A DNA stretch of 32,000 nucleotides from Fastidiosibacter lacustris (lineage in GTDB: Bacteria > Pseudomonadota > Gammaproteobacteria > Francisellales > Francisellaceae), in NCBI RefSeq assembly GCF_003428155.1, contig NZ_QLIR01000007.1, positions 1 to 32,000 on the forward strand, written 5' to 3'. The position numbers and the translations under genes are program-made. The first letter of the stretch is position 1. Each line of letters opens with the position of its first letter. The notes beneath the pieces are model-generated. The model was not told the origin of the DNA. It was given only the letters and a program-made list of their open reading frames with translations, and searched no databases. This document shows, piece by piece, positions 846-23,702 of the stretch.

Positions 846-2069
846 TTATGTATGCGCTTGCTCACTCTTTGTTTTACATACAGAACTAATAAATTGTTCT
901 ATCCAGATAATTGGAATAATTATTAATGGAGCTGCACTGCATACTAACCATAGCGTATAAATATTGCTTATTGCTATGATCCAAGATCCAATACTGGCAT
1001 AACACAGAAGAACCGCACTGATGGTCATCTGGTACCATATCATATATTCTGCTTGTCTTTGCATGGGTTTACTTAATTTTGCAACATCCGAAAGTAAAAT
1101 AGGCCAAAAAAGAATATCACCTAAACAAATCAAGCCATAGGCTAACCATAGAAACGTTATATGAGATAATCCACTGTAAAGCAGTAAAAAGCCACTACTA
1201 AAAACAATGACTCCAAGTATTAAAGAAACATGATTTCGATACTTGTTTAGTGCGTTCACTAAATAAACCTCTAAACCCAAAATAAATACAAAATCACTTG
1301 CAAGAATCAAGCCAAACTGTGATTTAGATAATCCTAAATACTCAACGTAATATATAGGAATAAATGCGACTGTTTGAAAAAATGCAAACGAGAAAATAGC
1401 AAGTTTTAATAAAATCAATAAAAAAGATTTGTTTAATAATGGATGTTTTTCTTGTGCTAAGCTCGTTTTTTCATCAGCACCCTGTGAGTTTGAAATGTAA
1501 TCCCGTTTTATAAGTAAAAATATACTGACCAATATACTGATTGAAGCAAAGAAAATTGCCATTAAGAGATAGGATATATCAGCCATTAACCCGCCGATTA
1601 AAATACCAATGGTTCCCCCTGTACTAATGCATACTCGGTACAATGCGTAAGCATTTTTTCTGATTAATTCATCCTCTATTTTTGCTAACCGGTATTGAAA
1701 TCCCGGTCTATAGAAGGCTCCAAAAACACCAATGAAAAAGAAATAGCACAGTAAAATTTGCGTGTGGTGAGACAAAAATATTGTGCCAAAATTTAGGATT
1801 GAAAGACCTGCAAATGAAATGGTGACTACCACCGTTGGCTGAAATAATTTAAGCAATTTACCAGTGAGTTTTGTACCTATAATTGATCCAGCTCCAGATG
1901 CACTTAAAGCATAACCAATATCAATAATGTTAACTTTGACATATTGCTGCAGAAATAATGAATAAAATGAACTATATGCAGTACCAATGTAAGCAAATCC
2001 AAAAACGAAGATTAATATTAATATATCTTTTGGGATTAGTTTGAACGCTTTTTGATAGGATTTAATCAT
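846..2069 (-). CDS. MFS transporter (putative exporter of the operon product)
   Basis: 407-aa ORF made almost entirely of hydrophobic helices in a ~12-TM pattern. Its start overlaps the stop of the upstream propeller gene by 8 nt. Confidence 0.7.
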   Translation of the reverse strand: MIKSYQKAFKLIPKDILILIFVFGFAYIGTAYSSFYSLFLQQYVKVNIIDIGYALSASGAGSIIGTKLTGKLLKLFQPTVVVTISFAGLSILNFGTIFLSHHTQILLCYFFFIGVFGAFYRPGFQYRLAKIEDELIRKNAYALYRVCISTGGTIGILIGGLMADISYLLMAIFFASISILVSIFLLIKRDYISNSQGADEKTSLAQEKHPLLNKSFLLILLKLAIFSFAFFQTVAFIPIYYVEYLGLSKSQFGLILASDFVFILGLEVYLVNALNKYRNHVSLILGVIVFSSGFLLLYSGLSHITFLWLAYGLICLGDILFWPILLSDVAKLSKPMQRQAEYMIWYQMTISAVLLCYASIGSWIIAISNIYTLWLVCSAAPLIIIPIIWIEQFISSVCKTKSEQAHT

Positions 2070-3867
2070 GCAGTACCTCTATATGTCTAGGAACTAGTTG
2101 TTCATCATGTATTTGCATGATTTTTAACTGCTTATAACGCCCATATACTAGAAATGTATAACCATCTTCAGATAAGTGAAGCAATCCTTTTGAATAGTCT
2201 AAATTATCATAACATTCATCCAAAACTGTCCCATTTTGATAATCGATTAAAAAAATCCTTTTGGCATAGGTTATGGCAATTAAGTACTTTGAGTCTTGAG
2301 TAATCAAATAATCTTCGACTGTGTTCTTCCCAATCTCGAATTCATCTTGATTATGATGCCATTCGCCATTTATATATTGAATCCTATCTATTGAAGAGCT
2401 TCTAGTAACAAGTAGGTCATGACCATGCCATTTCATTCTCTTTGGAAGATAAGATGAAGTTTTGGCCACTTCAATTAAATTGTTGTTGTGATTTAATGTG
2501 AAAACATATAAATTTCCTACTCGCTCAGCAACCGCGATAAAACTATATGTATGGCTATAAGCTAAACTCCATAAAGGCGCATTGAGTATAAACTTGGATA
2601 TAATACTTCTTTTCTTTAGACAGACAACAAAGAGGGTGTAATTTTCACAGGCTACAAATAGTTGATCGTGACCAACACAAATATCTCTTACCACACTACC
2701 AATTCCAACAGTTTTAATTAATCTAAGTTTGCATTGATCAAAAATATAAATAACCCCATCAGTCGAACCACAAATTAAGTCATTTTTATAGGAGACTACT
2801 CTCTTATAATAACTAGTTCCTTTAACACATACTTCAGCATGATTGAAAATTAGTTGATTGACCTTAAAGTTAAACTTTAAAACTCGATTACAATCGCCAC
2901 CTAAATATATTGAATGATTATTCAAATTAACACATGAGCTCCAAATACAAAAATCGCCACCACTTTTTAATGTTTGTTTCTTCCCAGTCTCAATGTTAAT
3001 TTTATACAAAGACCCATCTCTAACTTGTGCTAATACATTTTGATCATTTATATGGCGTATCCATCGAATTTTAAAAGGCAAATGTGCAAGCACAGATTTT
3101 ACTGCAAGTGTATTCAAATCAATATTGTAAAGTTTTTTATCAAAGCTTGAAGCAATAAGCTGTTTTGTTTGCTTATTATATGTAACGTGTTCTAGATCAT
3201 CATGTGAGACTTCTTCACTATATTCATAGTTTATTGGATTGTTTAAATGAAATTTAAAAAGCCTTCTTGCATCGCTAGCAGCTACAAATTGATCATTTTC
3301 AATATGCTCAAACCAATGAATAGTTTCATTACTTTCTGTAAATTTCACCGAAGTGAACAGTTGATTTGATTCTAAATTATAGATGTAAATTTCTCCACGA
3401 TTTGTGCCTGCAAGTAAAAATTTTTTGTATACTCTCAAAGTGACAATTGCGTGATGAACCTCTTCCCCAAAAACTGCTATCACTTCGCCAATCATAGTTA
3501 CTCGTACAATAAAGTTGCGTGGTGTTACAAAAAATACTTCCTCCGAATTAGAATTAAAACAAATTCCTTGCCCTTCATTATGAACAATAGGACGAGTAAA
3601 TTTTTCTGGAGTTAGATCTCTATAAAATATCCTTGCTATTGGTTTTATATCATTTTCACAAGATAAAATATAAACAAAAAAATCTTTCCCTAGAGTGGCA
3701 ATATATGGTTTGTTACAATGACTAGCTATTGCTTGGATAGTACCATTATGGAGCTTATAGTCTTTAATTAACGACATATCATCAACATTCAAATGAATAA
3801 TATTACCTTCTTTGTCTCCCGCATAACAACTTGACCCTATAACAGCAAAAGAATTTATGTGATACAT
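2062..3867 (-). CDS. divergent beta-propeller repeat protein (second propeller of the operon)
   Basis: 601-aa ORF with recurring ~40-aa blade-like units (GTNRGEIYIYNL, GSTDGVIYIFD, ERVGNLYVFTL, DKKLYNIDL). It lacks canonical WD dipeptides. It is translationally coupled to the downstream MFS gene. Confidence 0.5.
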   Translation of the reverse strand: MYHINSFAVIGSSCYAGDKEGNIIHLNVDDMSLIKDYKLHNGTIQAIASHCNKPYIATLGKDFFVYILSCENDIKPIARIFYRDLTPEKFTRPIVHNEGQGICFNSNSEEVFFVTPRNFIVRVTMIGEVIAVFGEEVHHAIVTLRVYKKFLLAGTNRGEIYIYNLESNQLFTSVKFTESNETIHWFEHIENDQFVAASDARRLFKFHLNNPINYEYSEEVSHDDLEHVTYNKQTKQLIASSFDKKLYNIDLNTLAVKSVLAHLPFKIRWIRHINDQNVLAQVRDGSLYKINIETGKKQTLKSGGDFCIWSSCVNLNNHSIYLGGDCNRVLKFNFKVNQLIFNHAEVCVKGTSYYKRVVSYKNDLICGSTDGVIYIFDQCKLRLIKTVGIGSVVRDICVGHDQLFVACENYTLFVVCLKKRSIISKFILNAPLWSLAYSHTYSFIAVAERVGNLYVFTLNHNNNLIEVAKTSSYLPKRMKWHGHDLLVTRSSSIDRIQYINGEWHHNQDEFEIGKNTVEDYLITQDSKYLIAITYAKRIFLIDYQNGTVLDECYDNLDYSKGLLHLSEDGYTFLVYGRYKQLKIMQIHDEQLVPRHIEVLHD

Positions 3868-3868
3868 A

Positions 3869-3879
3869 TGTGAGCACTA
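3869..3879. repeat. inverted-repeat arm 1 (TGTGAGCACTA)
   Basis: Perfect reverse complement of 4076-4086. It lies 1 nt from the ATG (3865-3867) of the propeller gene. Confidence 0.9.
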
Positions 3880-4075
3880 CCTTTTAATTAATGTGAGTTT
3901 ATTTTTTTTAAAAAATATAAAGAAATAAAAAGTTATTTGGATGATCTCTTGACTTAAACGTTGTATTTGGCATGTTTTCCCCCTTCCTATTTGCTAGAAT
4001 TATTACTAGGTAATACTGAAACAGCTTTATTTTGATTAATAATCATAATTTTTTCCTCTATGTTGTTTGTTATAA

Positions 4076-4086
4076 TAGTGCTCACA
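4076..4086. repeat. inverted-repeat arm 2 (TAGTGCTCACA)
   Basis: Perfect reverse complement of 3869-3879. It lies 9 nt from the stop codon (4096-4098) of the FGE-domain gene. Confidence 0.9.
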
Positions 4087-4095
4087 CATATATCA

Positions 4096-5070
4096 CTAAA
4101 TTTCTACTAATCTAAACCCCATGACATAAATATCCTTAGAAAACCGCCCATGCCTTCTTGTTGTTCGGGCTAAATCATGATGTCTAGTAAAAGACCCGCC
4201 TCGTGCAATACGATATTCATCGATATCACCCAAATCATCAATTACCGCTTTTCCATTAGGGTATGGACGATAATAATCTTGTACATATTCTTCGACATTC
4301 CCAGACATATCTGAAACCCCAAATGGTGAATTTCCCTTGGGGAAAATACCCACGGGGGTACTGGAATAAAGCCCTGTCTCCAGTGTGTTGCATAGATTGG
4401 GCTTATATTCATTTCCCCAAGGATATTCATAATGAGCTGGACCTGAAGCAGCATACTCCCATTCATATTCGGTTGGTAACCTGAAAAATCTTCCCGTTTT
4501 TTTGGACAACCATTGAGTATATGAAATTGCGGCGTCATCAGAGATACTATAAACAGGGTGATTTGATTTCAAATACGGGTAAATGCCAAATTCCCAACTA
4601 CTAGGGAGCTCACAATATTTTGTATCTAATAAAAAGTCGTAATAATTCTCATTAGTTACCAGGTATTTAGATACTTTAAATGCTTTAACCATAACAGTAA
4701 ACTTAGGAACTTCCTTTAGTATCCATTCTTTCTTCACCCCCAATTGATTAAATCTGTCAAAAACTTCATAAGCCTTATTGATATTGATACCAATTTCAAC
4801 CTCTCCTGCGGGAATTTCAATCATTTTTGGGGTAATGGTTGAAGTTCTTGGATCCCCCATCAAACCTAAGAGAATACCTGCAGCATAGCGATATTCAAAA
4901 AGCTCATGGGACTCAGCTGTTAAGACAAGTTCATGCTTATTGCATTTTTTAATATGCAGCAACGCATTAGATAGATTAGGGACTCTCGTATCAACACTAT
5001 GCATTGACAGACCCATTGCTTCGCGATCATCCATTTGATTGATTATCTTTTTTATATCAGAAACAAGCAT
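4096..5070 (-). CDS. formylglycine-generating-enzyme (FGE/SUMF1, ex-DUF323) domain protein, ToxD-like
   Basis: 324-aa ORF. It carries the C-terminal FGE-sulfatase signatures MSGNVEEYVQDYY and RIARGGSFTRHHDLARTTRRHGR. Its start lies 1 nt after the stop of the RibD paralog. Confidence 0.7.
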   Translation of the reverse strand: MLVSDIKKIINQMDDREAMGLSMHSVDTRVPNLSNALLHIKKCNKHELVLTAESHELFEYRYAAGILLGLMGDPRTSTITPKMIEIPAGEVEIGININKAYEVFDRFNQLGVKKEWILKEVPKFTVMVKAFKVSKYLVTNENYYDFLLDTKYCELPSSWEFGIYPYLKSNHPVYSISDDAAISYTQWLSKKTGRFFRLPTEYEWEYAASGPAHYEYPWGNEYKPNLCNTLETGLYSSTPVGIFPKGNSPFGVSDMSGNVEEYVQDYYRPYPNGKAVIDDLGDIDEYRIARGGSFTRHHDLARTTRRHGRFSKDIYVMGFRLVEI

Positions 5071-5071
5071 T

Positions 5072-6178
5072 TTATAGTTTCCTTATCTCAGGACGGATGG
5101 GTTTCCATACCGCTTTAATATCATTTCCAGATGGTGAGGTGTGATCTAATGAAAAGTGTAGACAATTTTGTAATGTTCTTATTTGATCAAACCAAACGGA
5201 AGATTTGCTGTGATTACCTAATGGTTTTGGTGAAATATAGGTTATATATTCATCAACAAGATCTTCTTTGAAGAAACCACCGGCTAAATCAGCCCCACAC
5301 TCCACTAAAAGATAATTAATATTTCTCTTTGATAAATCCTCTACAATAAACGTCAGGTTTATTTTTCCATTTATTGACGGTGCTTTGACAATCAATAAAT
5401 TTTGTAGTTTAAGAAGATATTTAGGAATCTCATTTTCTTTCTTTAAAGTATAAACAATTATTTTTGCTTGAAACTTAATAATATTATCCACTTCTGAAAT
5501 GAACAAAGATGAATCCAAAATAACACAAACAGGTTGTTTTATTTCATGTAATCCTATATCTATACTCTTTGGCAACTCTCTAACAGTTAATTTACAGTCA
5601 TCCTGTTTTATTGTTTTTATGCTGGTAAGAACAGCATCTGACATTGCACGTATATGGTGAACATCCCTTCTTGAGTGATCACAACTAATCCACTTGCTAT
5701 TATTTGTACAATCAGCAATTTTTCCATCTAATGTAATTGCTTGTTTAAGCACTACCCAAGGACGTTTATAGTCAAACCTATGGAAATAACCTTTGTTTAA
5801 TTCTATATATTTGCTCTGTAGTTCTACTGATTGCAACTGCCTAATGCTTATCCCTTCCTTTTTTAGTGAATCAATTCCTTTTCCAGCAATCAGAGGGTTT
5901 GGGTCTGGCAATAAATAGATCACATCGGTAATCTTAGACTCAATAATCTGCTCACAACATGGTGGAGTTTTGCCAAAATGACAACAAGGCTCTAAGGTAA
6001 CATACATTTTTATATTGAGTGACTCTGAAGTTATTTTAGGGGTATGTTCAAGTGCTAAAATCTCAGCATGTTTCCCACCATATGATAAATGCGCTCCTTC
6101 CGAGATAATATGTCCGTCATGGACAATAACACACCCAACCATTGGATTAGGACTTGGTATAGCGACCTTGCTTAGCAA
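5072..6178 (-). CDS. RibD-like bifunctional pyrimidine deaminase/reductase paralog (ToxE-like), with disrupted 5' end
   Basis: 368-aa ORF with PNPMVGCVIV, GGKHAEILAL and VTLEPCCHFGKTPPCC zinc-deaminase motifs plus a C-terminal reductase-like half. The ORF-track start is a TTG. The canonical N-terminus MDRAIQLAKQGRYTKS is encoded from the ATG at 6197 in another frame (see finding). Confidence 0.75.
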   Translation of the reverse strand: MLSKVAIPSPNPMVGCVIVHDGHIISEGAHLSYGGKHAEILALEHTPKITSESLNIKMYVTLEPCCHFGKTPPCCEQIIESKITDVIYLLPDPNPLIAGKGIDSLKKEGISIRQLQSVELQSKYIELNKGYFHRFDYKRPWVVLKQAITLDGKIADCTNNSKWISCDHSRRDVHHIRAMSDAVLTSIKTIKQDDCKLTVRELPKSIDIGLHEIKQPVCVILDSSLFISEVDNIIKFQAKIIVYTLKKENEIPKYLLKLQNLLIVKAPSINGKINLTFIVEDLSKRNINYLLVECGADLAGGFFKEDLVDEYITYISPKPLGNHSKSSVWFDQIRTLQNCLHFSLDHTSPSGNDIKAVWKPIRPEIRKL

Positions 6179-6219
6179 GTTGAATTGCTCTATCCATAAA
6201 AATACAATCTTGCTCTAGT

Positions 6220-7917
6220 TTATAACCTCTCATAAATATTTCCATTATAGCTACTAGCTAAAAAACATTTTTGATCAGCATTGTAGATCATGCATGATAT
6301 CCCTGAGGTACACGGTCTAAAATTTTGCCATAAGCCACTGTCTAAATGATATATATAAATATCACCATAATAACCACCCGTAGCAATAAATTTCTTATCA
6401 TCGCTTATAGCAATACATTTAATGGAGTGCTTGTGCGGTGTATTAATAATGCTTTGCTCAGTAAGACTAGTTAATCTTAGTGTTAAGTCTCTACTTACTG
6501 AGACAAATTTATTGTCTTGATAATAAATACATCCATTAATGATTTTATCATGGGCGTTTTCTAAGCGTTTCACACAGTTAAAGTCATGTATTGAATGAAA
6601 TGCAGCATTGCAGTTTGCACTTACTGAATAAATAAAATCCTGTGATGTAGCTATCGATTTTATTGCATTATCATGAGCTTGAATTAGTTGGTATAAATTT
6701 AATGCCGCGCCATTTATCTTAAGGATGACAATGTCGCCTGTATAGGTGCCAATGGCAACATAAGTGCATCCATTGTTTAAATATTTAATAGCACAGTTTA
6801 TAGGTGAGTGGTGTTGATAAACGCTCGTGACGCCCTCACCATTTACCTGATAAACTGTACCAGTTTGTCCCCCAACTAATAAAAATTGATCAACCTTGAT
6901 GATAAAGTTACATAAACTTGGAACATCTGAAAGTGAATATTTATATTTTTTTCCATTAACACTCCTGCAGATTACAGCTCCCGCATCACCAACACTGAAA
7001 ATATCATCATCGCTTTTACAGATGGCATTAATACCAGAGGTAGGTATCACATTAGTTAAGTCCCAGCTACCTGATTCGATATTTAACTTGGCGTAACTTG
7101 ATCCAAATGTTGATACAACTAAGCTATTTTCATTCTGAAAATCACAAGATCTAGCCCAGATTTGATATGGGTAGGGCATTTTCTTAACCAAAACGAGATC
7201 ATTATTACTTGAAACTTGCCAAATAGCTAAATACCGATCATAGCTCAAGCTAATAAGCTGACTAAATTCTTGTGAGTATAATAATCGTTTAATCCCAGCG
7301 TTATGTGCTTTAATCACTGATATCTCATCATTTTCAAATATATAGATTTCTCCTTTATCGTTGCCAGAAAAAATACATTCGGCACCTTTAACTGCAATTG
7401 TATCGGTCTCTATCCCTTTGAGATCTGTTGAGTTAAGTAGTTTTCCTGTAAATGGTGACCATCTTTTTATCGTTCCATCATCACTACTACTAATGGCAAT
7501 TTCATCGTTAAGCCAAGATACTGATAATACATCTTGTTTGTGTCCTTTAAGTATATGGATAAGATTGCCTTCAATATCACAAAAATAAATATTATGGTCC
7601 CTTGAGGTAAAAATAATGTACTTATCAGAAGGGTGAAATGCAACACCTTCTGTATCATCTTTAGCAAATGTAAATATGGCTAAACAGTGTAACTCAGGTA
7701 CCGACCAGAGCCGTACAGTATAGTCACTGCTACTTGAAAGTAATAATTGACCATTATGACTAAACACGCACTGATTAACCAGATGGTCATGTGAGACTGA
7801 GGCAATTGCATTGGATTTAGTTGAGTCCCACAAAATTAACTTATTATCATATCCTGCTGTCGCAACATAATTATCCTTGGTGGCAACACCGCTAATTGGG
7901 CTGGAATGCATAGTCAT
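6220..7917 (-). CDS. WD40 repeat protein, ToxC-like
   Basis: 565-aa ORF with canonical WD40 blades (GYDNKLILWD, SSSDYTVRLWS, SSDDGTIKRWS, SYDRYLAIWQ). It has a 4-nt ATGA overlap with the upstream GTP cyclohydrolase II gene. Confidence 0.75.
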   Translation of the reverse strand: MTMHSSPISGVATKDNYVATAGYDNKLILWDSTKSNAIASVSHDHLVNQCVFSHNGQLLLSSSSDYTVRLWSVPELHCLAIFTFAKDDTEGVAFHPSDKYIIFTSRDHNIYFCDIEGNLIHILKGHKQDVLSVSWLNDEIAISSSDDGTIKRWSPFTGKLLNSTDLKGIETDTIAVKGAECIFSGNDKGEIYIFENDEISVIKAHNAGIKRLLYSQEFSQLISLSYDRYLAIWQVSSNNDLVLVKKMPYPYQIWARSCDFQNENSLVVSTFGSSYAKLNIESGSWDLTNVIPTSGINAICKSDDDIFSVGDAGAVICRSVNGKKYKYSLSDVPSLCNFIIKVDQFLLVGGQTGTVYQVNGEGVTSVYQHHSPINCAIKYLNNGCTYVAIGTYTGDIVILKINGAALNLYQLIQAHDNAIKSIATSQDFIYSVSANCNAAFHSIHDFNCVKRLENAHDKIINGCIYYQDNKFVSVSRDLTLRLTSLTEQSIINTPHKHSIKCIAISDDKKFIATGGYYGDIYIYHLDSGLWQNFRPCTSGISCMIYNADQKCFLASSYNGNIYERL

Positions 7918-16147: not shown

Positions 16148-17398
16148 ATGCTTTATAGGGAACTGTTATCAAGAGTGAGGCTATTTAAAAATCAATCATA
16201 TGTCTTTTTTGCACTGAGTGGAATTGCCGCAACGATTGGCAATGGATTGGTGTATATTACAACCTCCTGGTACGCATATGAGTATTTTCAGTCAATTAGC
16301 GGTGTGGCATTGTTGATGTTTTGTATTTGGGCGCCCAGCATTATTTTTGGTCCTTTCTTTGGGGTGTGTGCTGATAGATACAATAGAAAAATGATATTGG
16401 TGCTCTCCAATGTTGTAAGAGGGGTTGCTATTTGTCTTTTCGTACTACTGGAACTTCTAAATTGGCACAATAATATATTTGTTTTGGCCATCGTATTAGG
16501 CGTTTTTGTCTCATTCTATATGCCTGCGGCTATTCCTATGATTACTCAGATTGTTAAAGAAGAAGACTTACCTAAGGCAAATGCCACGGTTGATATGCTT
16601 TATGAAGTAGGTACGATCATTGGAATGGGGCTTAGCGGTGTTTTCATTTATGCTTTTGGGAGTGTTTGGACTTTGTTTGTTGGTGGGATCTTATTTATAG
16701 TATCTGGGTATTTTAATGTACTGATGAGGTACCAACACGATAAAAAAGAGGTGCTCAATAGGCAAAGCACTTCTTTCATACGAGAGTATATCGAGTCAAT
16801 CAAATACATTTTTAACAAAAAAGGCTTAGTGTCTGTCTATCTTGTCCAAACGTTTGTTATGGTATTGCTGATGACCATCCCTGTTTTGTTAGTTCCTTAT
16901 GTGAATCAGGTATTGCATGCAAATAGCCGAATTTTTGCTTTGTTTGAGATGGTTTATTCAATGGGTGTATTTATTGGTTGCTTTTTCACACCGATGCTAT
17001 GTGAAAAGTTAAGGTTTAGAGTAACCGTAGCGTCACTGATGTTTGTCATGTTCCTTATGTTATTACTGATTGCCACTAACCTCAGTATGGTGATAAGCCT
17101 TATTTCCTATTTTGTTATTGGCTTTTGTTTATCCAGCTGGGCACTATCAATTGCTCAGGCGCAAATACACACGGATGTTGCATCCCAGGGTAGGGCGCAA
17201 TCAACTTTTAATAGCTTGTCAGGCATAGGCATTTTAATATTGTATTTGCTGGTCACTTTTGAAGGAAAAACGCTGCATACCCAAGCTTTATATTTTGCTG
17301 AAGCGATAATCGCTTTAGTAGGTAGTTTGATTGTTATCCTAGCAACGACGGAGCCTCAGAAAGTGGCAGAGCATAGCGCTGGGGGCAGATTAAAGTAG
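16148..17398 (+). CDS. MFS transporter (EntS/MFS_3-like)
   Basis: 416-aa ORF with a ~12-TM pattern. The loop motif GVCADRYNRKMILVLSNVVRG is typical of this MFS subgroup. GGGAG SD. Confidence 0.75.
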   Translation: MLYRELLSRVRLFKNQSYVFFALSGIAATIGNGLVYITTSWYAYEYFQSISGVALLMFCIWAPSIIFGPFFGVCADRYNRKMILVLSNVVRGVAICLFVLLELLNWHNNIFVLAIVLGVFVSFYMPAAIPMITQIVKEEDLPKANATVDMLYEVGTIIGMGLSGVFIYAFGSVWTLFVGGILFIVSGYFNVLMRYQHDKKEVLNRQSTSFIREYIESIKYIFNKKGLVSVYLVQTFVMVLLMTIPVLLVPYVNQVLHANSRIFALFEMVYSMGVFIGCFFTPMLCEKLRFRVTVASLMFVMFLMLLLIATNLSMVISLISYFVIGFCLSSWALSIAQAQIHTDVASQGRAQSTFNSLSGIGILILYLLVTFEGKTLHTQALYFAEAIIALVGSLIVILATTEPQKVAEHSAGGRLK

Positions 17399-17465: not shown

Positions 17466-17496
17466 AACAAAAACGATTGAACGCAAAGTAATCATG
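17466..17496 (+). repeat. 31-bp direct repeat, left copy (AACAAAAACGATTGAACGCAAAGTAATCATG)
   Basis: Identical to 23602-23632. It overlaps the stop codon (17492-17494) of the GCS2-like gene. Confidence 0.95.
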
Positions 17497-18493
17497 AGTT
17501 AAATGCTAAAGGCGCTGCTGACGTATAGCATTGTTTTATACAGCAAATAATTTCATCTGGGCTATATGCACTATCAAAGCAGCGAAATTCAATAAGTGGG
17601 GCATTATTATAAATGCGTGGTCTAGCTGCGTATAGATAATTGCTTTTGAAGCGTACATCATCTTCGTATGGAGGCGCTCCAAATAAATGGACTACTGCTT
17701 TTTTGCCTGCAGCAGCACTGGCTGAGTTAGCTAAAACGTATTCAATTAACCATCGTCCATGTAGATCTATCCAATTGAGGATATCATTTCTACATGAATT
17801 GCGACCTCTATTTCCATTGCTGTAAGTGTAAAAGTTAACTGATTTTCTCAGAAAATCCAAAAAATTATGGTAAAAAAGATCGTTAAAATCCCTGTTTTTT
17901 GTCAGAAACCAATGAGAGTGGCTGAGTGTGATATTTAATGAAGTGAAGCCTGCAAAACGTAGTGCTACATCGTGAAAGTTTATCGTTTGACATGGGAAGG
18001 GCGGGGAGAATTTTTGAGTAATCAATAGTGCTTTATTTGCATCTTGGGGGTCCAGTAAAATTTCATGTAAGTTACATACCCTATTCGAGCCGAGATCCAT
18101 GAACCTTCCAAAGGCAGCGGAGTAAGAGTCACTTAAAGTTAAACTCGGTAGTTGGAAGGACACAGCCAACTGATTGACTAAGTAAACAAGTATGCTTTCC
18201 ATGAGCTTTAATTCAGTGACTAACTCATCTAATTGCGCTATAGTCTTTGGAGGAGAGATGATTTCAATAATGGCATGGCTGTATTCTGGCTCAACCTTCC
18301 AGCCCTTGTCCAAGAGAGCAGTTAGAATGTTTGATTTTTTACAGCCTACGTAAATAAATTTTCTATAGAGGGTAAAAAAATCCCTTGATGCCAAAACGAA
18401 GGTGAGCTCATTATCTGTGAGACATTGAGCAACAAATGTATATTCCTTCTCGATACCTACTCGTGTCGTCATAGACATGGTATTTTTTTCCAC
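17492..18493 (-). CDS. glutamate-cysteine-ligase family 2 (GCS2)-like carboxylate-amine ligase
   Basis: The N-terminal VGIEKEY, AIIEIISPP and C-terminal PLIEFRCFDS resemble the GxExE / E..E / lExRxxD motifs of GCS2/YbdK-type ligases. The likely real start is the ATG at 18472 (ATGA overlap with the upstream stop) or at 18478. Confidence 0.5.
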   Translation of the reverse strand: MEKNTMSMTTRVGIEKEYTFVAQCLTDNELTFVLASRDFFTLYRKFIYVGCKKSNILTALLDKGWKVEPEYSHAIIEIISPPKTIAQLDELVTELKLMESILVYLVNQLAVSFQLPSLTLSDSYSAAFGRFMDLGSNRVCNLHEILLDPQDANKALLITQKFSPPFPCQTINFHDVALRFAGFTSLNITLSHSHWFLTKNRDFNDLFYHNFLDFLRKSVNFYTYSNGNRGRNSCRNDILNWIDLHGRWLIEYVLANSASAAAGKKAVVHLFGAPPYEDDVRFKSNYLYAARPRIYNNAPLIEFRCFDSAYSPDEIICCIKQCYTSAAPLAFNS

Positions 18494-19689
18494 TTAATGA
18501 GATGAGATTCTGATAAAACTCTCATGTTTTGTTCAACCTCCTGTTTGTCGTTGCCAATAATGACATAACTAGCCATTCTATTATGTATTCGTTCACGCTT
18601 GTAAAAGCGATCACCTACCTTTGTTTTAATTTCTTCGGCTGTGACCCATGACAAGGATTCAGCGGTATTCACCTGTAAGATTTCAGCCATTTCAGGTGCA
18701 GGAATATCTAGCCAACCTGCACATAATGAGCGTTGAATTTTCTGAGTATAAGGTATTCCAAGTTCTTGAAGGAACCATTTCTGAGCATAGTTGATGCCTG
18801 TGGCAGCTTCTATTGCAGTCACAAGAAAAGTACCTCCGAACCTTGCTCCAATTTCACAAAAATAAATTTCTCCATCAGAGGTAACAAAATATTCAGCGTG
18901 GGTGCATCCATTAGGAGGTGATAAAGTATTTATTACTAACTCATTTATAGAATGTAACTCTTGAATCAAGGTATCGTTTCTTGTTTGTATTATTCCACCT
19001 ACTTCTGAGGTTTGTAAGTGTACGGGTGGCTTAGTGTATTTAAATGCAAATGAACATTCTATTTTGTTATGGTTAATAAAGCTATCTACATGGTACATCT
19101 CACCACCAATAAAGCTTTCTATCATATACATTTCAGGATTGAAATACACATCCTGAATTGCCTCCTGAAATTGCTGCTCACTCTCCACTATAAACACATT
19201 CATACTAGCCATACCCAAACGTGGCTTGATAACAAAAGGCAATCCATATTTTTGGGAGAGGTTATTGAAATGTAAGTGCTCAATAATATTTATGTCAGCA
19301 AGTGAGGCATATTTTGGTAATTTAATTCCCTTATTCATCAATTCCTTTTTCATGGTGTATTTATCTCTGAAACGCAGGATATCAGCTATCTTGGGTCCAG
19401 GGATTTTATGAAGCATACGTAATGTTGCTGCAAGGTGCATATCTTCTTCAGAAAAGCAAATTAGGTGATCCACACCTCCTATGGTGTTAATAAGAGTTGT
19501 ACATAACTCGACTGTTAGTTCATCTGCTACTACAAAAACGCTGCACTTTTGTTTCCACTCATTAGGAACAAGCTCAGCATATTTTTTTGTGCCAATAAAA
19601 TAAAAGTCGAACAAATCGGCATCGGCGATTTCATGATAACGAATAAGCTCGTATCGGATTTTATTGAACACTAATACTTTGTCTCGCAT
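18469..19689 (-). CDS. ATP-grasp ligase (L-amino-acid-ligase-like), paralog 2
   Basis: 406-aa ORF with LPFVIKPRLGMASMNVFIV, MIESFIGGEMYHVDSF and HAEYFVTSDGEIYFCEIGARFGG ATP-grasp motifs. Its ATG abuts the upstream TAA (TAAATG), with AGGAG inside the upstream gene. Confidence 0.75.
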   Translation of the reverse strand: MRDKVLVFNKIRYELIRYHEIADADLFDFYFIGTKKYAELVPNEWKQKCSVFVVADELTVELCTTLINTIGGVDHLICFSEEDMHLAATLRMLHKIPGPKIADILRFRDKYTMKKELMNKGIKLPKYASLADINIIEHLHFNNLSQKYGLPFVIKPRLGMASMNVFIVESEQQFQEAIQDVYFNPEMYMIESFIGGEMYHVDSFINHNKIECSFAFKYTKPPVHLQTSEVGGIIQTRNDTLIQELHSINELVINTLSPPNGCTHAEYFVTSDGEIYFCEIGARFGGTFLVTAIEAATGINYAQKWFLQELGIPYTQKIQRSLCAGWLDIPAPEMAEILQVNTAESLSWVTAEEIKTKVGDRFYKRERIHNRMASYVIIGNDKQEVEQNMRVLSESHLIKWKKIPCL

Positions 19690-20910
19690 TTATATCTCCT
19701 CATGGTACTCAATGAATTGATGTTCCTGTAAAGTTCGAAAATCTTGTTCCAAAATGTGGTCATCTTGGTCTATCAGCATAATCGTGGCTGCTCTGTCATA
19801 GCATGATATTGATGCACCTATTCTTTCAAATGTTTGAACCTTCCAGTTTATATCAAACTTCTGACTAGCAAGACGTGGCAAAATGAATTGTTTTATCAGA
19901 CCTGCTTTCTTAGGTACATATATCCAAGCGGCGCTCATCAACTTCTCAGGGGTTATTTTTTGAGAACTTAAACCGAGTTCAAGCATAAATAAATAGGCGG
20001 CTATATCTAGACCTAGGGCATATTCATACATGGGTAAGATTTCTCCTCCTGGTGGGCGTGCCGCAATTTCGATAAATACAAGATTGTCATTGTTGGTGAG
20101 GAATAACTCCATATGAGTCATCCCATCAGGGGGAGATAGCGCCTTTAAAACTGACTCATTAAAACAGCGTATTCTGTCCTTTAATTCAGAGTTTGCAAGC
20201 AGCCTGCTTCCCAAATTGTTTCCATGCATGAAGTCTATTGCATTACCCATATATTCGCATACTTCTACAAATAGAATTTTCCCTTGGCAAACAATGCTAT
20301 CACAATGCAAAAATCTACCTTCTATATATTCCTCAAAGTTATAATCAGCCAGATTTGGTTGATTCCCCTCGACGACCCCTTGTAACTCTGCTTTATTACG
20401 TACTTTTTTTGCACCAATCCCTCCACTGCCATCTTTTGGTTTTACGATCAAGGGAAACCCCAAAGAGGATATAGTATTGACACAGTCGCCAATGCTCATG
20501 TTATCAAAGTCATCATCTATAAATTGTGGAACCTTGATTCCGTTCCGAAATAATATGGATTTCATGATTTTTTTATCTCTAAATGGGATGAGTTTGTCCT
20601 CATATGGACCTGGTAAATCAAAACGTTTTCGGATTCGAGCACACAGCAAAAGCAATTCCTCATCCCAACAAATAAGCTTCAATCTGCTGTTATAACTGGC
20701 ATATCGTTGAATGATGGTGGCAATAGATGTTTCATCAAAATTTTCGAGTTTAATGAGTTCATCGAAGGTATCTTTATGCTGATCTGGAAATCGATGATAA
20801 AACTCTTCGTCAAGTAAAATAATAAACTTATGTTTATTTGCATCGTAGAATCGATGTGGATTTAGTTTGTCATATCGCATTTTCAGTATAATAACGTATA
20901 TATCCTGCAT
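19690..20910 (-). CDS. ATP-grasp ligase (L-amino-acid-ligase-like), paralog 1
   Basis: FPLIVKPKDGSGGIGAKKV, FEEYIEGRFLHCDSI and HMELFLTNNDNLVFIEIAARPPGG motifs. I prefer the ATG at 20910 (GGAG SD 6 nt upstream, 406 aa like its paralog) over the ORF-track TTG at 20937. Confidence 0.75.
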   Translation of the reverse strand: MQDIYVIILKMRYDKLNPHRFYDANKHKFIILLDEEFYHRFPDQHKDTFDELIKLENFDETSIATIIQRYASYNSRLKLICWDEELLLLCARIRKRFDLPGPYEDKLIPFRDKKIMKSILFRNGIKVPQFIDDDFDNMSIGDCVNTISSLGFPLIVKPKDGSGGIGAKKVRNKAELQGVVEGNQPNLADYNFEEYIEGRFLHCDSIVCQGKILFVEVCEYMGNAIDFMHGNNLGSRLLANSELKDRIRCFNESVLKALSPPDGMTHMELFLTNNDNLVFIEIAARPPGGEILPMYEYALGLDIAAYLFMLELGLSSQKITPEKLMSAAWIYVPKKAGLIKQFILPRLASQKFDINWKVQTFERIGASISCYDRAATIMLIDQDDHILEQDFRTLQEHQFIEYHEEI

Positions 20911-20911
20911 G

Positions 20912-21742
20912 TCATGCTCCAGCGGTTTTTTGTACAAGGTTAAGGTTTATTTGAGATAAAAGCGTGTCTGCTTTGCGATAGTCTTTAACCATTTTTATTA
21001 GATCGTGGAACTCAGCCCACTGTTGTAATTCAAGGATGCTGAAATGTAAGCACATCTTCCATTGTTCAGTGTCTTTAATTAAATCTACCATCTGTTTTGA
21101 TGGAAAAGTTGAAAAGTAGGCGTTCACAAATGCTGTATATCTCGACTGTGCTTGATAGCGATTGATACTTGGAACAGTACAACATTCAACAATGGCAATA
21201 GCAAAGTCAATTATTGGATCACCCCAATTAGATTCTTCATAATCAATAAATGTATTAAATTTACCTTTAACGAACAAACAGTTTGGTAAACAAACGTCTC
21301 CATGCAGATAACATTGTATTCCAGAGACTTTCCATCCATTTTCAAGTAGTGTATGGTGAATTCTAACAGGTTGTGAAGAGAAGAGCGCATCGCCTATATG
21401 ATCTATCTGTATGCTGCTGTGAAACAATGCTAAACCGGTGGCAATTCCCTCAATATCCTTCAAATCAGGGCTGTTTTTGCATGTTTCTCCTAAATTTGGA
21501 AAAATTGCACAATGGTTTTCGTCGTCAAAATAAACTTGTGGCATGCTATTTTGCAGAATATTCCATGCGTATTTTTCACGATGATATGCTTTAGGGAGAT
21601 GAAATTTTTTCAAGTAATAAAGGTTACCTAATAGATTAAATGACACTACATAGTTTGCGCGACCATGAGACTTTTCTGCTTTGCACAAAAGTTCGACTTG
21701 CCATTTATACTGAGACCTAAACTGAACAGTAATATCGGTCAT
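20912..21742 (-). CDS. APH/choline-kinase-type phosphotransferase
   Basis: 276-aa ORF with the catalytic-loop motif YLHGDVCLPNCLF and the IDYEESNWGDPIIDFA motif typical of the aminoglycoside-phosphotransferase-like kinase family. Confidence 0.7.
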   Translation of the reverse strand: MTDITVQFRSQYKWQVELLCKAEKSHGRANYVVSFNLLGNLYYLKKFHLPKAYHREKYAWNILQNSMPQVYFDDENHCAIFPNLGETCKNSPDLKDIEGIATGLALFHSSIQIDHIGDALFSSQPVRIHHTLLENGWKVSGIQCYLHGDVCLPNCLFVKGKFNTFIDYEESNWGDPIIDFAIAIVECCTVPSINRYQAQSRYTAFVNAYFSTFPSKQMVDLIKDTEQWKMCLHFSILELQQWAEFHDLIKMVKDYRKADTLLSQINLNLVQKTAGA

Positions 21743-21759
21743 ATTTCCCCCCCCCTAAT

Positions 21760-22932
21760 TTAAACATCTTTGCATACGGCTTTGCGCAACAGAAGCATTT
21801 TAAAGAGTGTGACTAGCGTTGCTATGAGCATGACAATGCATAATAGCCACAAGTGATGGTTGCTAGTTGTCATAAACACTGGTAAGAAGTTAATAACAAT
21901 GGGGGTTAAAATGGCCAAAATGACTTTGGATGTACCAAAAGTGGTACTTTTATTTTGAAGATTACCCATCAAAGTTAGGAGATTGGTAAATTGGGTGATT
22001 ACCAGGGACTCAAGAATGGTGAAAACGATTAAGAAGGCGTATACAGAACCTATGCTTGGATATAATCTTACTGCGGACAAAAGCAGTATCAAAACAGTTG
22101 AACATGCTATAAACAACCATCGCGCCTCGCTTAAGGACAGCCGCATCTTTTGCGATACATATTGTTGAATAGCAACAAGCAAAACACCATTGAAAAACTG
22201 TGCCATAGCAACTTGCTCAGGTAAGTGTAGTAAAGTACTAAACAAATAGGGGAATATGACTGGGAAGGAAGCGACAAGCGCAAATGGTATGCAACAAAAT
22301 AGATGCAATTTAATAAAGTCAATATTCAAAATCCCTGACCAAGTTTCTGTGGGTTTTGGTTTTTTGTTTACTTCTTGATAGCAAGAAAAATGTGGCGTTT
22401 TTACTAACATAAAGAAACAAAGCAACAGCTCCAGAATCAAGCACACGATAAGTAAAGAATATAATGCTGACAACCAGATAAAACACAAAGCCAAGAGACT
22501 TCCAAGCACGGCACCCAGGTTGGTTGCTCTCAAAAAAGCGCCTTGGGACATGATTGTGGTTTTGTCATTTTCAGATAGCATAACCAATACGGCTCGAGCA
22601 TTCGTGCTGAATACACAGCCACCTATGCCTAAGCCCATGACACCTAAGGTCAAGAAATATACATGATCACTCAAGCACAATATAAGGTATGATAGCACAT
22701 CAATAGCGCAACCTATGAGCATAAGCCTGTGTACGCCAAATCTATCACCTAGCACCCCTGCGGGTAATGCAAATCCCTGGTTAGTAAGCAATAAAACAGA
22801 AAACATCATAGGAATGAGCGTGATAGAAATGTTGATACTTTGTGCATAGAGGTAAAAAATCCCCAGAAAAGCTGCGTAAGTTGTGGAGGAAGCCAGTCGG
22901 CGCGCAATAATAATGGTTTGTATATTCTGCAT
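21760..22932 (-). CDS. MFS transporter
   Basis: ~390-aa polytopic ORF with the MFS loop GVLGDRFGVHRLMLIG. The ATG at 22932 is preceded by AAGGAG. Confidence 0.75.
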   Translation of the reverse strand: MQNIQTIIIARRLASSTTYAAFLGIFYLYAQSINISITLIPMMFSVLLLTNQGFALPAGVLGDRFGVHRLMLIGCAIDVLSYLILCLSDHVYFLTLGVMGLGIGGCVFSTNARAVLVMLSENDKTTIMSQGAFLRATNLGAVLGSLLALCFIWLSALYSLLIVCLILELLLCFFMLVKTPHFSCYQEVNKKPKPTETWSGILNIDFIKLHLFCCIPFALVASFPVIFPYLFSTLLHLPEQVAMAQFFNGVLLVAIQQYVSQKMRLSLSEARWLFIACSTVLILLLSAVRLYPSIGSVYAFLIVFTILESLVITQFTNLLTLMGNLQNKSTTFGTSKVILAILTPIVINFLPVFMTTSNHHLWLLCIVMLIATLVTLFKMLLLRKAVCKDV

Positions 22933-22943
22933 CAATTTTCTCC

Positions 22944-23489
22944 TTATCTAGATAAAATAGATAAATATGGATAAGAAATAGAGATATCAGCGGCGAAAAG
23001 GGTCTGCTTGAGAAATTTATCTGTTAAAAAAACATAATCCCATAAGGTGATGTAAAGACCATAGCGTATGGTTGGATATTGATGATGAGTCATGTGGTAT
23101 TCTCCCCAAGCAAATAGAGTTGTAAGCTTGCCTTTAATTTCCGAATTGTGGTCTAAAACGGTTTCTGATAAAAAAACTTCGTATAAATAAACAAGGAGGA
23201 GTAGTACGCCACCAGTTGAAGGAAAGGGCAAGGCGAGGACGAGTGCTGGCAGAATTAAAGTAAGTCAGACATCTAAAGATTCCCTCAAGCCACCAAACCA
23301 CAACAAATAGTTTTGCCAAGTTGGCAAGCTCAGCTTGTTAAGCTGATGATATTTTATCAAATGGTGTGCTTTGTGGATTTTAAATAATGGGTTACGCCGA
23401 GGATTATAATGCGCAAGGGCATGCACGCCATAAGCGTAAAGAGACCATATCAGAAACACAAATAGAAAATTAACAATCCACTGGGTCAT
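22944..23489 (-). pseudogene. fatty-acid hydroxylase / sterol-desaturase-family gene interrupted by one in-frame TGA
   Basis: His boxes HALAH, HKAHH and HMTHH are spread over two ORFs (23265-23489 and 22944-23231). These ORFs are in the same frame and are separated only by the TGA at 23265-23267 plus 11 sense codons. The ATG at 23489 has an AAGGA SD. Confidence 0.6.
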
Positions 23490-23517
23490 AGGATATCCTT
23501 GAAAATAAATTTTATAA

Positions 23518-23546
23518 AACGTATCAAGTTGTAATATTTTTGTCAA
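23518..23546 (-). promoter_or_regulatory. candidate promoter of the ligase operon (TTGACA-N17-TACGTT on the minus strand)
   Basis: The reverse complement of 23541-23546 is a perfect TTGACA. There is a weak -10 at 23518-23523. It lies ~30 nt upstream of the ATG at 23489. Confidence 0.3.
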
Positions 23547-23601
23547 TGCCGTTTCGATGAGATTTTATATATGAACAGCGATAACTGGGGAGAGTGAAAT
23601 G

Positions 23602-23632
23602 AACAAAAACGATTGAACGCAAAGTAATCATG
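23602..23632 (+). repeat. 31-bp direct repeat, right copy
   Basis: Identical to 17466-17496. It contains the -35 hexamer of the putative rlmN promoter. Confidence 0.95.
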
Positions 23633-23640
23633 TGTATAAT
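23613..23640 (+). promoter_or_regulatory. candidate sigma70 promoter of rlmN (TTGAAC-N16-TATAAT)
   Basis: Hexamers at 23613-23618 and 23635-23640, about 60 nt upstream of the rlmN ATG. Confidence 0.45.
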
Positions 23641-23702
23641 GCCTGGGTTGAAAGAGCATCCACCATAAGTAAGTTTAAGTTAGGCAAATAGAGTAATCAA
23701 TA

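Follow-up and report, generated by a model that had tools for sequence, protein, structure and literature searches.

What six neighbouring genes do together is the question raised by a 32,000-nucleotide stretch of Fastidiosibacter lacustris DNA (contig NZ_QLIR01000007.1, positions 1 to 32,000; hereafter the window), in which six co-oriented genes occupy 17492-23489 on the minus strand. The answer that we favour, with confidence slightly above even, is that they form a horizontally mobile, self-contained operon whose products assemble a small amide-linked (pseudo-peptide) metabolite independently of nonribosomal peptide synthetases (NRPS) and export it. We infer all chemical steps, the substrates, the direction of export and transcription as an operon, and the mechanism steps are drawn from family chemistry. 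The genes, in the order in which they would be transcribed, are as follows.

22944-23489, minus strand: hydroxylase of the FA_hydroxylase family, membrane di-iron His-box type (Pfam on both fragments, ortholog alignment)
21760-22932, minus strand: major facilitator superfamily (MFS) transporter, 390 aa, probable exporter (MFS_1, 3e-19; RefSeq WP_116963854)
20912-21742, minus strand: APH / protein-kinase-like small-molecule kinase, 276 aa (Pfam APH, 3.5e-9, above gathering)
19690-20910, minus strand: ATP-grasp ligase A (graspA), 406 aa, L-amino-acid-ligase (LAL) type (Pfam, RizA match, orthologs)
18469-19689, minus strand: ATP-grasp ligase B (graspB), 406 aa, paralog of graspA (Pfam ATP-grasp_4, 4.2e-12; RizA match)
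17492-18472, minus strand: protein X, 326 aa, putative third carboxylate-amine ligase of a rare, unannotated family (predicted glutamine synthetase (GS)/glutamate-cysteine ligase (GCL)-like fold)

All open reading frames (ORFs) were present as first described when the window was read. The first-pass annotation had the six genes chained by translational-coupling signatures, and each junction was recovered. The hydroxylase stop codon TAA (22944-22946) is followed by 11 nt (GGAGAAAATTG) and the MFS ATG at 22932, with AAGGAG overlapping the stop codon. The MFS stop TAA is followed by 17 nt (ATTAGGGGGGGGGAAAT) and the APH ATG at 21742. This second gap holds a G9 homopolymer (21747-21755, minus strand, read directly), the ribosome-binding region of the kinase gene; as a speculation, its length could change by slippage and alter kinase translation, giving it a role in phase variation. 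The APH/graspA junction is TGA-c-ATG, and the graspA start was therefore placed at ATG 20910 (406 aa) rather than at TTG 20937. The graspA/graspB junction is TAAATG, and graspB and X overlap by ATGA, the X start being ATG 18472 (326 aa). RefSeq names the five proteins WP_116963850-854 as a hypothetical protein, two ATP-grasp proteins, a phosphotransferase and an MFS transporter. When Pfam was run on each ORF, five of the six family assignments made at first pass held: the kinase, the transporter, the interrupted hydroxylase and the two ligases. Overall, the in-silico checks put forward at first pass favoured its interpretation or at the least did not contradict it, and that interpretation is supported in part.

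Both ligases, first described as 406-aa LAL-like ATP-grasp paralogs, scored above the Pfam cut-offs. graspB matched ATP-grasp_4 with 46.4 bits (cut-off 27) and ATP-grasp_3 with 42.2 bits (cut-off 23.2); graspA matched ATP-grasp_3 with 33.6 bits and ATP-grasp_4 with 30.5 bits against the same cut-offs. The two are 26% identical to each other. RizA (4wd3) was the best PDB sequence match of both (4.1e-19 for graspB and 7.6e-15 for graspA), and the second-best solved relative was the LAL BL00235; D-Ala-D-Ala ligases were weaker, with Ddl and PurK-type matches at 1e-8 or weaker. In the residue alignment to RizA, the query VIKP fell on IVKP and CEIGARFGG on GEIAMRIGG. Across 12 sequences (5 graspA and 7 graspB orthologs) the Lys of (I/V)KP, E.(F/Y)(I/V), H-x-E and E-(I/V)-x-x-R-x-x-G were invariant; these residues comprise the Lys that binds ATP, the Glu of the hinge, two Glu that bind Mg, the catalytic Arg and the Gly after it. 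The first-pass annotation had held that a lack of conserved ATP-grasp catalytic residues would speak against the ligases, and because the Lys, Glu, H-x-E and E-(I/V)-x-x-R are invariant in all 12 sequences, no such loss was found. The named LAL equivalogs of NCBIfam all remained below their cut-offs (DdaF 25.9 vs 840, BacD 21.6 vs 850 and PylC 31.7 vs 248 bits). By sequence, graspA and graspB are assigned as LAL-type members of the ATP-grasp superfamily, and amino-acid ligation itself is predicted.

The block had first been taken for an orphan operon. The gene-neighbourhood search overturned this claim: the order is conserved across distant hosts, and the same six genes occur in the same order in at least five other contigs (L001-L003, L005 and L092), with partial copies in L091, L006 and L007.

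L001-L003: hydroxylase 159, MFS 357, APH 271, grasp 404, grasp 406, X 305 aa
L005: hydroxylase 205, MFS 408, APH 247, grasp 415, grasp 409, X 355 aa
L092: hydroxylase 178, MFS 392, APH 275, grasp 413, grasp 401, X 306, then an AdoMet_dc-like protein of 126 aa
L091: contig begins within the MFS gene; APH, grasp, grasp, X, then an Orn/DAP/Arg-type decarboxylase dependent on pyridoxal phosphate (PLP), 374 aa
L006: grasp and X
L007 (Elstera litoralis): grasp and the start of X

graspB homologs were scarce, with 13 among 5.8 billion proteins, and graspB orthologs in seven loci were 35-55% identical. By tblastn against L001 and L005 the six genes were in one-to-one orthology, with 38-41% identity between graspA proteins, 41-45% between graspB proteins and about 25% across the paralogs. 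The A/B duplication is therefore older than the spread of the cassette. Host contigs range in GC content from 26% to 52%, and the GC content of the cassette follows that of its flanks. The genes beyond the six or seven differ at every locus; the flanks in L001 resemble a mobile element, with a resolvase, a restriction-modification pair and helix-turn-helix (HTH) proteins. In a metagenome-assembled genome (MAG) of Francisellaceae (JBMSHD010000051.1, L004:741-1052), graspB is 55% identical and the X after it has been cut to 103 aa by an internal deletion, which keeps only the N-terminal GIEKEY and the C-terminal ARPR...ELRCF segments. A scan of genome contigs with graspB, in a collection apparently without F. 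lacustris, found no further copies. Metagenome scans gave no match with X and one distant, 28%-identical match with graspB; viral contigs held no cassette copies, and 72,556 plasmids held no X and only generic ATP-grasp proteins about 25% identical. From these sequence comparisons the block appears to be a rare, recurrent, horizontally mobile cassette.

Two direct repeats frame the cassette in F. lacustris.

17466-17506: left copy of a 41-nt direct repeat, overlapping the end of the X gene (its last codons and TGA stop)
23602-23642: right copy of the 41-nt direct repeat, holding a sigma-70-like promoter that faces rlmN
23490-23601, minus strand: operon leader and putative promoter region, divergent from rlmN (TTGACA at 23540-23545, minus strand)

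The repeat copies are identical at 38 of 41 positions, and their spacing of 6136 bp corresponds exactly to the six genes. A 31-nt exact core is present twice, where none is expected by chance. The right copy contains a near-consensus promoter, TTGAAC-16-TATAAT (23613-23640, plus strand), the probable rlmN promoter, and the left copy provides the final codons and stop of X. This arrangement suggests that the cassette was inserted in the MFS-rlmN intergenic or rlmN promoter region, through recombination at a short, specific sequence. No recombinase gene lies inside the cassette, and no direct repeats of at least 18 nt were found around the cassettes of L001 and L005. A scan with RlmN returned only a 74%-identical locus, in Francisella sciaenopsi, whose left side is not syntenic (no neighbouring MFS gene). 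In the leader, a minus-strand scan passed no consensus promoter, and the promoter role of this region is presumed. Control of the cassette by a riboswitch was considered and rejected, since the leader contains no Rfam element.

The first-pass annotation had called X a GCS2-like third ligase, from its motifs GIEKEY, IEIISPP and IEFRCFD. The motifs are present and a GS/GCL-like fold is predicted with moderate confidence; membership of Pfam GCS2 did not hold. X had no Pfam family at E<=0.01 and no NCBIfam family, and 13 family members (X and 12 relatives) gave no GCS2, Gln-synt or Amidoligase Pfam match at E<=10. PDB sequence searches with X and with X profiles returned chance matches only. X is not a member of Pfam GCS2, and the label 'GCS2-like' applies to it only because of its predicted fold and motif pattern. 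The family is small. A word-indexed search of 5.8 billion proteins found only X itself, an exhaustive phmmer search of 1.84 billion cluster representatives gave 15 X-family proteins at E<=1e-3, and a profile search added members from Paenibacillus, Bacillus and Metabacillus. Invariant in the 13 members are G6, E8 and E10 (GxExE), G57, W58, E70, S73, T182, E295 and R297, and near-invariant are E63, Y64, S65, P74, R228, D236, P285 and R286.

A single-sequence AlphaFold prediction of X was unusable (pLDDT 36.7) and was replaced by an AF2 model based on a multiple alignment of 14 sequences, which reached pTM 0.78 and a pLDDT of 75.8, most of residues 1-150 exceeding 90. When this model was compared with the PDB by Foldseek, the best matches, about 39, were all GS, YbdK, GCL or GmaS. 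They included YbdK (1r8g, 1tt4), the glutamate-cysteine ligases 3ig5, 2gwc and 1v4g, and gamma-glutamylmethylamide and 1-naphthylamine GS-like enzymes. The invariant acidic and Arg residues of X lie on predicted beta-strands 4-16, 59-72, 178-184 and 283-299. In GS and GCL enzymes the active-site funnel is built from acidic and Arg residues borne on beta-strands, and the strand-borne residues of X would, in the model, match the arrangement expected of such a funnel. The metal-binding His of GCL may correspond to the His/Asn in an S-x-[HN]-x-T motif of X. Most plausibly, given its predicted fold, X is a GS/GCL-type carboxylate-amine ligase.

X-family genes also occur outside the cassette. In Paenibacillus sp. 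Root444D2 (L008:8646-10969) the neighbour encodes a DUF455-like ferritin-type protein. At L094:332-3804 the X-family gene lies beside genes for a DUF3865 / haem-oxygenase-like di-iron protein, a PEP-utilising enzyme, an inositol monophosphatase (IMPase) and a serine hydroxymethyltransferase (SHMT), and at L093:5935-8978 (75% GC) it adjoins a lipocalin-polyprenyl synthase fusion. X-family genes are paired with di-iron oxygenases of three different folds, a pattern of neighbourhood which hints that X may handle an oxygenated substrate.

The kinase matched Pfam APH (PF01636) with 37.2 bits (cut-off 23.2), and five orthologs keep the HGDxxxxN catalytic loop, the IDxEE metal site and the upstream Lys. 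It had no equivalog-level NCBIfam match (homoserine kinase 26.4 vs 271, APH(3') 24.9 vs 205 and GntI 17-20 vs 357) and no PDB sequence match at E<=0.01. The transporter matched MFS_1 with 69.6 bits (cut-off 33.4) and has weak NCBIfam similarity to the drug-efflux proteins SmvA and QepA; in L001 and L005, orthologs 35-41% identical take the corresponding position. Resistance is classically conferred by APH-family kinases and by MFS pumps, and these two proteins, with weak NCBIfam matches to APH(3') and efflux MFS proteins and a mobile genomic context, could belong to a module for resistance, detoxification or salvage, in which the kinase inactivates an incoming compound, the MFS protein pumps it out and the ligases recycle or conjugate it. 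We regard this as very improbable. It leaves three conserved, catalytically intact ligases and an oxygenase unexplained, the resistance-equivalog scores reach 25-28 bits against cut-offs of at least 205, and the cassette is absent from the plasmids that were scanned.

Two further assignments were considered for the block as a whole. The six cassette proteins had no match to PADLOC models of anti-phage defence. A graspetide system, of the type in which a peptide is made by the ribosome and modified after translation (RiPP), was rejected on the grounds that there is no precursor ORF and that the ligases are of the LAL type, not of the RimK/MdnC type. Strong homology of the block to a primary-metabolism locus had been put forward at first pass as evidence that would tell against a biosynthetic operon; none was found among glutathione, cell-wall and other loci or NCBIfam equivalogs.

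The hydroxylase frame is open from 23489 to 22944 save for one in-frame TGA at 23265-23267. Both fragments match FA_hydroxylase (PF04116) below its cut-off of 31 bits (25.6 and 22.5 bits), while intact orthologs reach 50.1, 47.2 and 46.0 bits. The His boxes HxxxH, HxxHH, DHN and HxxHH align with those of the intact orthologs of L001 and L005. The TGA site is Trp in L005 and Val in L001, and a change from TGG to TGA is a single transition. In endosymbiont XS4, of the same bacterial family, UGA is read as Trp under code 4 (PMC13462651, PMC13092985). Such recoding of the hydroxylase was rejected here. TGA ends 8 of the 27 long ORFs of the window, including the APH, graspB and X genes at ends matching their orthologs, which makes the hydroxylase TGA a genuine stop. 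The simplest explanation for it is a recent nonsense mutation or an assembly error; with one lesion and no frameshift downstream, the inactivation is either recent or a sequencing error.

These findings bear on whether the block in F. lacustris is what is left of a horizontally acquired cassette, decaying, non-functional and without current phenotype. We hold this to be a serious possibility, at well below even confidence. It would account for the true stop at a conserved position of the hydroxylase and for the internally deleted X of the related Francisellaceae MAG, and pseudogenes are predicted to make up 129 of the 1914 ORFs of the species (PMC9837558). The other five genes, however, are full-length with all catalytic residues intact, the hydroxylase carries its single lesion with nothing shifted downstream, and the 31-nt repeat core is still perfect. 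Furthermore, the hydroxylase stop is a UGA followed by C, and in E. coli such a context is leaky.

Under the reading of a biosynthetic operon, the two LAL-type enzymes would each convert a carboxylate to its activated acyl-phosphate and couple this to an amine. X would perform a third ATP-dependent carboxylate-amine ligation, for which a side-chain carboxylate or an amine or polyamine acceptor is plausible, and graspA, graspB and X together could form up to three amide bonds. The APH-type kinase would phosphorylate a hydroxyl group, on either a building block or the product, as activation, as part of the product or for self-protection. The membrane di-iron enzyme would hydroxylate the molecule, and the MFS protein would export the product. 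Because of the nonsense codon in the hydroxylase gene, the product in F. lacustris would lack the hydroxylation, be made in small amounts by read-through of the UGA, or not be made at all.

In two of the relatives a decarboxylase gene is translationally coupled right after X, and the two enzymes are not homologous (PLP Orn/DAP/Arg type in L091, pyruvoyl AdoMet_dc type in L092). The appended decarboxylase would supply or create an amine terminus. The independent recruitment of two unrelated decarboxylases suggests that the molecule contains a decarboxylated terminus or an amine derived by decarboxylation of an amino acid. Arginine/ornithine decarboxylases belong to both of these enzyme families. 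Because of this, and because RizA is Arg-specific, we speculate with low confidence that a basic amino acid or an agmatine-type unit is possible in the product.

The coupled decarboxylases also raise the prospect of a metallophore or siderophore made outside the route of the NRPS-independent siderophore (NIS) synthetases, in which the ligases would join carboxylates to a (di)amine from decarboxylation and the MFS protein, which is present here, would export the chelator, as in the vibrioferrin, staphyloferrin B and Francisella rhizoferrin loci. In carboxylate siderophore loci such as pvsABCDE, sbn and fsl, amide synthetases are paired with PLP decarboxylases and MFS exporters. The features that mark a NIS (IucA/IucC) siderophore cluster were nevertheless absent: none of the cassettes contained or adjoined a gene for an IucA/IucC synthetase, a TonB-dependent receptor or uptake, and there was no Fur-box-like site in the promoter region, where the best match (11/19) was at background level, so that Fur control of the leader was rejected. 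An APH-type kinase and a membrane hydroxylase, moreover, have no role in the known pathways of this kind. We consider a metallophore quite unlikely.

Alternatively, the cassette could modify the envelope or membrane lipids, the hydroxylase and kinase acting on a lipid, the ligases adding amino-acid or amine head-groups and the MFS protein flipping the product. FA_hydroxylase enzymes are integral membrane proteins whose typical substrates are lipids, sterols and carotenoids, some MFS proteins translocate lipids, and the MFS neighbour outside the cassette has a weak LplT-type match. Set against this, none of the seven loci holds an acyltransferase, a glycosyltransferase or a carrier protein, both ligases are nearest to ligases of free amino acids, and the cassette MFS protein resembles drug-efflux types. 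The cassette also moves among hosts of 26-52% GC, which argues against dependence on a host-specific envelope substrate. Lipid modification is, in our judgement, unlikely.

Several points weigh against an operon for a small amide-linked metabolite. The hydroxylase gene is broken in the F. lacustris copy, and because its stop is genuine the pathway of this strain may be altered or decaying. With the hydroxylase broken here and X internally deleted in the Francisellaceae MAG, the cassette seems to be undergoing loss in parts of the lineage. The usual substrates of FA_hydroxylase-family enzymes are lipophilic, which is a poor fit to a hydrophilic peptide. The cassette contains no regulator, immunity gene or obvious precursor-supply gene. 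As for X, the C-terminal half of the model has pLDDT 50-70, the Foldseek matches have E-values of 1e-3 to 0.2 and TM-scores of 0.25-0.44 (with probabilities of 0.8-1.0), and an hhalign comparison of the X profile with E. coli YbdK was not significant (probability 1.9%), with GIEKE aligned on GIELE. Limited text-based searches of the literature on this gene combination returned nothing relevant, and an earlier in-silico mention is possible.

A more far-reaching proposal goes beyond the biosynthetic operon, and we offer it tentatively, with the balance tipped against it. The cassette would be the smallest set of genes needed for an NRPS-independent natural product of a class not seen before: a pseudo-tripeptide that is hydroxylated, phosphorylated or both, or else an amide of amino acid and polyamine, assembled by three ATP-dependent ligases. 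X would found a new, Pfam-invisible branch of the GS fold with di-iron oxygenases of three folds as recurrent partners, and the whole would spread among distant bacteria as a promoter-targeting mobile unit that has no recombinase of its own.

Compact clusters built on ligases only are under-explored, because rule-based genome miners key on the hallmarks of NRPS, polyketide synthase (PKS) and RiPP pathways. The characterised products of such clusters (bacilysin, tabtoxin, phaseolotoxin and the dapdiamides) are potent antimetabolites. The present cassette is about 6 kb, self-contained and found intact in several GC backgrounds, which makes it directly testable by synthesis and heterologous expression. 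If the biosynthetic reading is true, it would give a first function to the X family, which has no annotation anywhere, and would add to the reactions catalysed by the GS/GCL fold. Through the flanking repeats, the movement of small biosynthetic cassettes that have no on-board integrase becomes tractable to study here. Current understanding is not overturned by any of this.

On its left the block is flanked by an FMN riboswitch with the ribD-ribE-ribBA-ribH operon, by a gene for an ABC ATPase and by an MFS gene (16148-17398), and to its right lie rlmN, a pilW-like tetratricopeptide-repeat (TPR) gene and further housekeeping genes. The riboswitch (11313-11505; Rfam RF00050, 101 bits) precedes the rib operon (11693-14989) and is ordinary. 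Near this true rib operon, at 846-9595 on the minus strand, is a second, non-housekeeping set of riboflavin-type genes. The set consists of the following genes.

8738-9595: LuxR-type regulator
7914-8513: GTP cyclohydrolase II
6220-7917: WD40 beta-propeller protein
5072-6178: RibD-like deaminase/reductase
4096-5070: formylglycine-generating enzyme (FGE)-sulfatase/EgtB-like protein
2062-3867: second WD40 protein
846-2069: MFS protein
173-751: flavodoxin/WrbA-like protein

The composition of this set presumably matches that of the toxoflavin tox operon (ToxB, C, E, D) minus the ToxA methyltransferase, and it may be an azapteridine/toxoflavin-like biosynthetic cluster. Between it and the rib operon, a 375-aa ORF with an IS1 InsA-type HTH domain (9880-11007, minus strand) may derive from a transposase and mark a further mobile boundary. 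A 586-aa fusion of an alpha/beta-hydrolase with a patatin-like phospholipase, a type that is often an effector in intracellular bacteria, is encoded at 25585-27345, downstream of rlmN and pilW.

Among known systems, those close to the cassette include the LALs (RizA of Bacillus subtilis, 4wd3; BL00235, 3vot) and the loci for dipeptide antibiotics in which LALs are paired with an MFS exporter (BacD/BacE of bacilysin, and rhizocticin). RizA is the best solved relative of both ligases, which have the KP...E...H-x-E...E-I-x-x-R-x-G-G active-site pattern and the three-domain size of about 400 aa of RizA-type LALs, and a dedicated MFS protein stands in an operon with the ligases, here presumably co-transcribed. 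The ligase identity, however, is only about 25% with no equivalog-level match, the cassette has two ligases together with a GS-like protein, a kinase and a membrane hydroxylase, and it carries no gene for an anticapsin or phosphonate precursor. By analogy, the cassette would work like LAL-based loci such as those for bacilysin, rhizocticin, tabtoxin and dapdiamide. It is a member of none of the systems compared here: equivalog thresholds were not reached and the gene set is different.

The Pht cluster for phaseolotoxin in Pseudomonas syringae makes a small peptide antimetabolite without NRPS and lies on a horizontally acquired island; its LAL, PhtU, makes Ala-homoarginine, and it includes a fatty-acid-desaturase homolog, desI, of undetermined role (PMC11278893). 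The presence of an LAL and a membrane di-iron enzyme in one cluster is a precedent for the cassette. The two are likened by gene content, not by sequence: among the 23 genes of Pht are those for an amidinotransferase and a resistant ornithine carbamoyltransferase (OCTase), and the cassette di-iron enzyme is of the FA_hydroxylase and not the FA_desaturase type.

For X, the YbdK/GCS2, GCL and GS folds are the only ones matched by the predicted structure, and the X family has three invariant elements that may be counterparts of theirs: GxExE at the N-terminus, Glu on a second strand and ExR at the C-terminus. X differs in being shorter (about 305-355 aa) and in having no Pfam or PDB sequence match. 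Glutathione synthesis follows a comparable two-enzyme logic, with GshA of the GS/GCL fold and the ATP-grasp enzyme GshB joining free amino acids into a short peptide with neither ribosome nor NRPS. The cassette, in contrast, matches no gshA or gshB model, adds a kinase, a hydroxylase and an exporter, and is rare and mobile rather than housekeeping. Operons combining ATP-grasp with GS-like or GCS2-like amidoligases were reportedly predicted by comparative genomics by Iyer, Abhiman, Burroughs and Aravind in Mol Biosyst in 2009 (a work cited in PMC4431377). The general idea, that co-operonic ATP-grasp and GS-like amidoligases make novel peptide-like metabolites, would be shared with that work, whereas X falls outside the Pfam families derived from such surveys. 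The cassette would be of a known kind, NRPS-independent ATP-grasp biosynthesis, and its new elements are the GS-fold family, the fixed six-gene architecture and the evidence of mobility.

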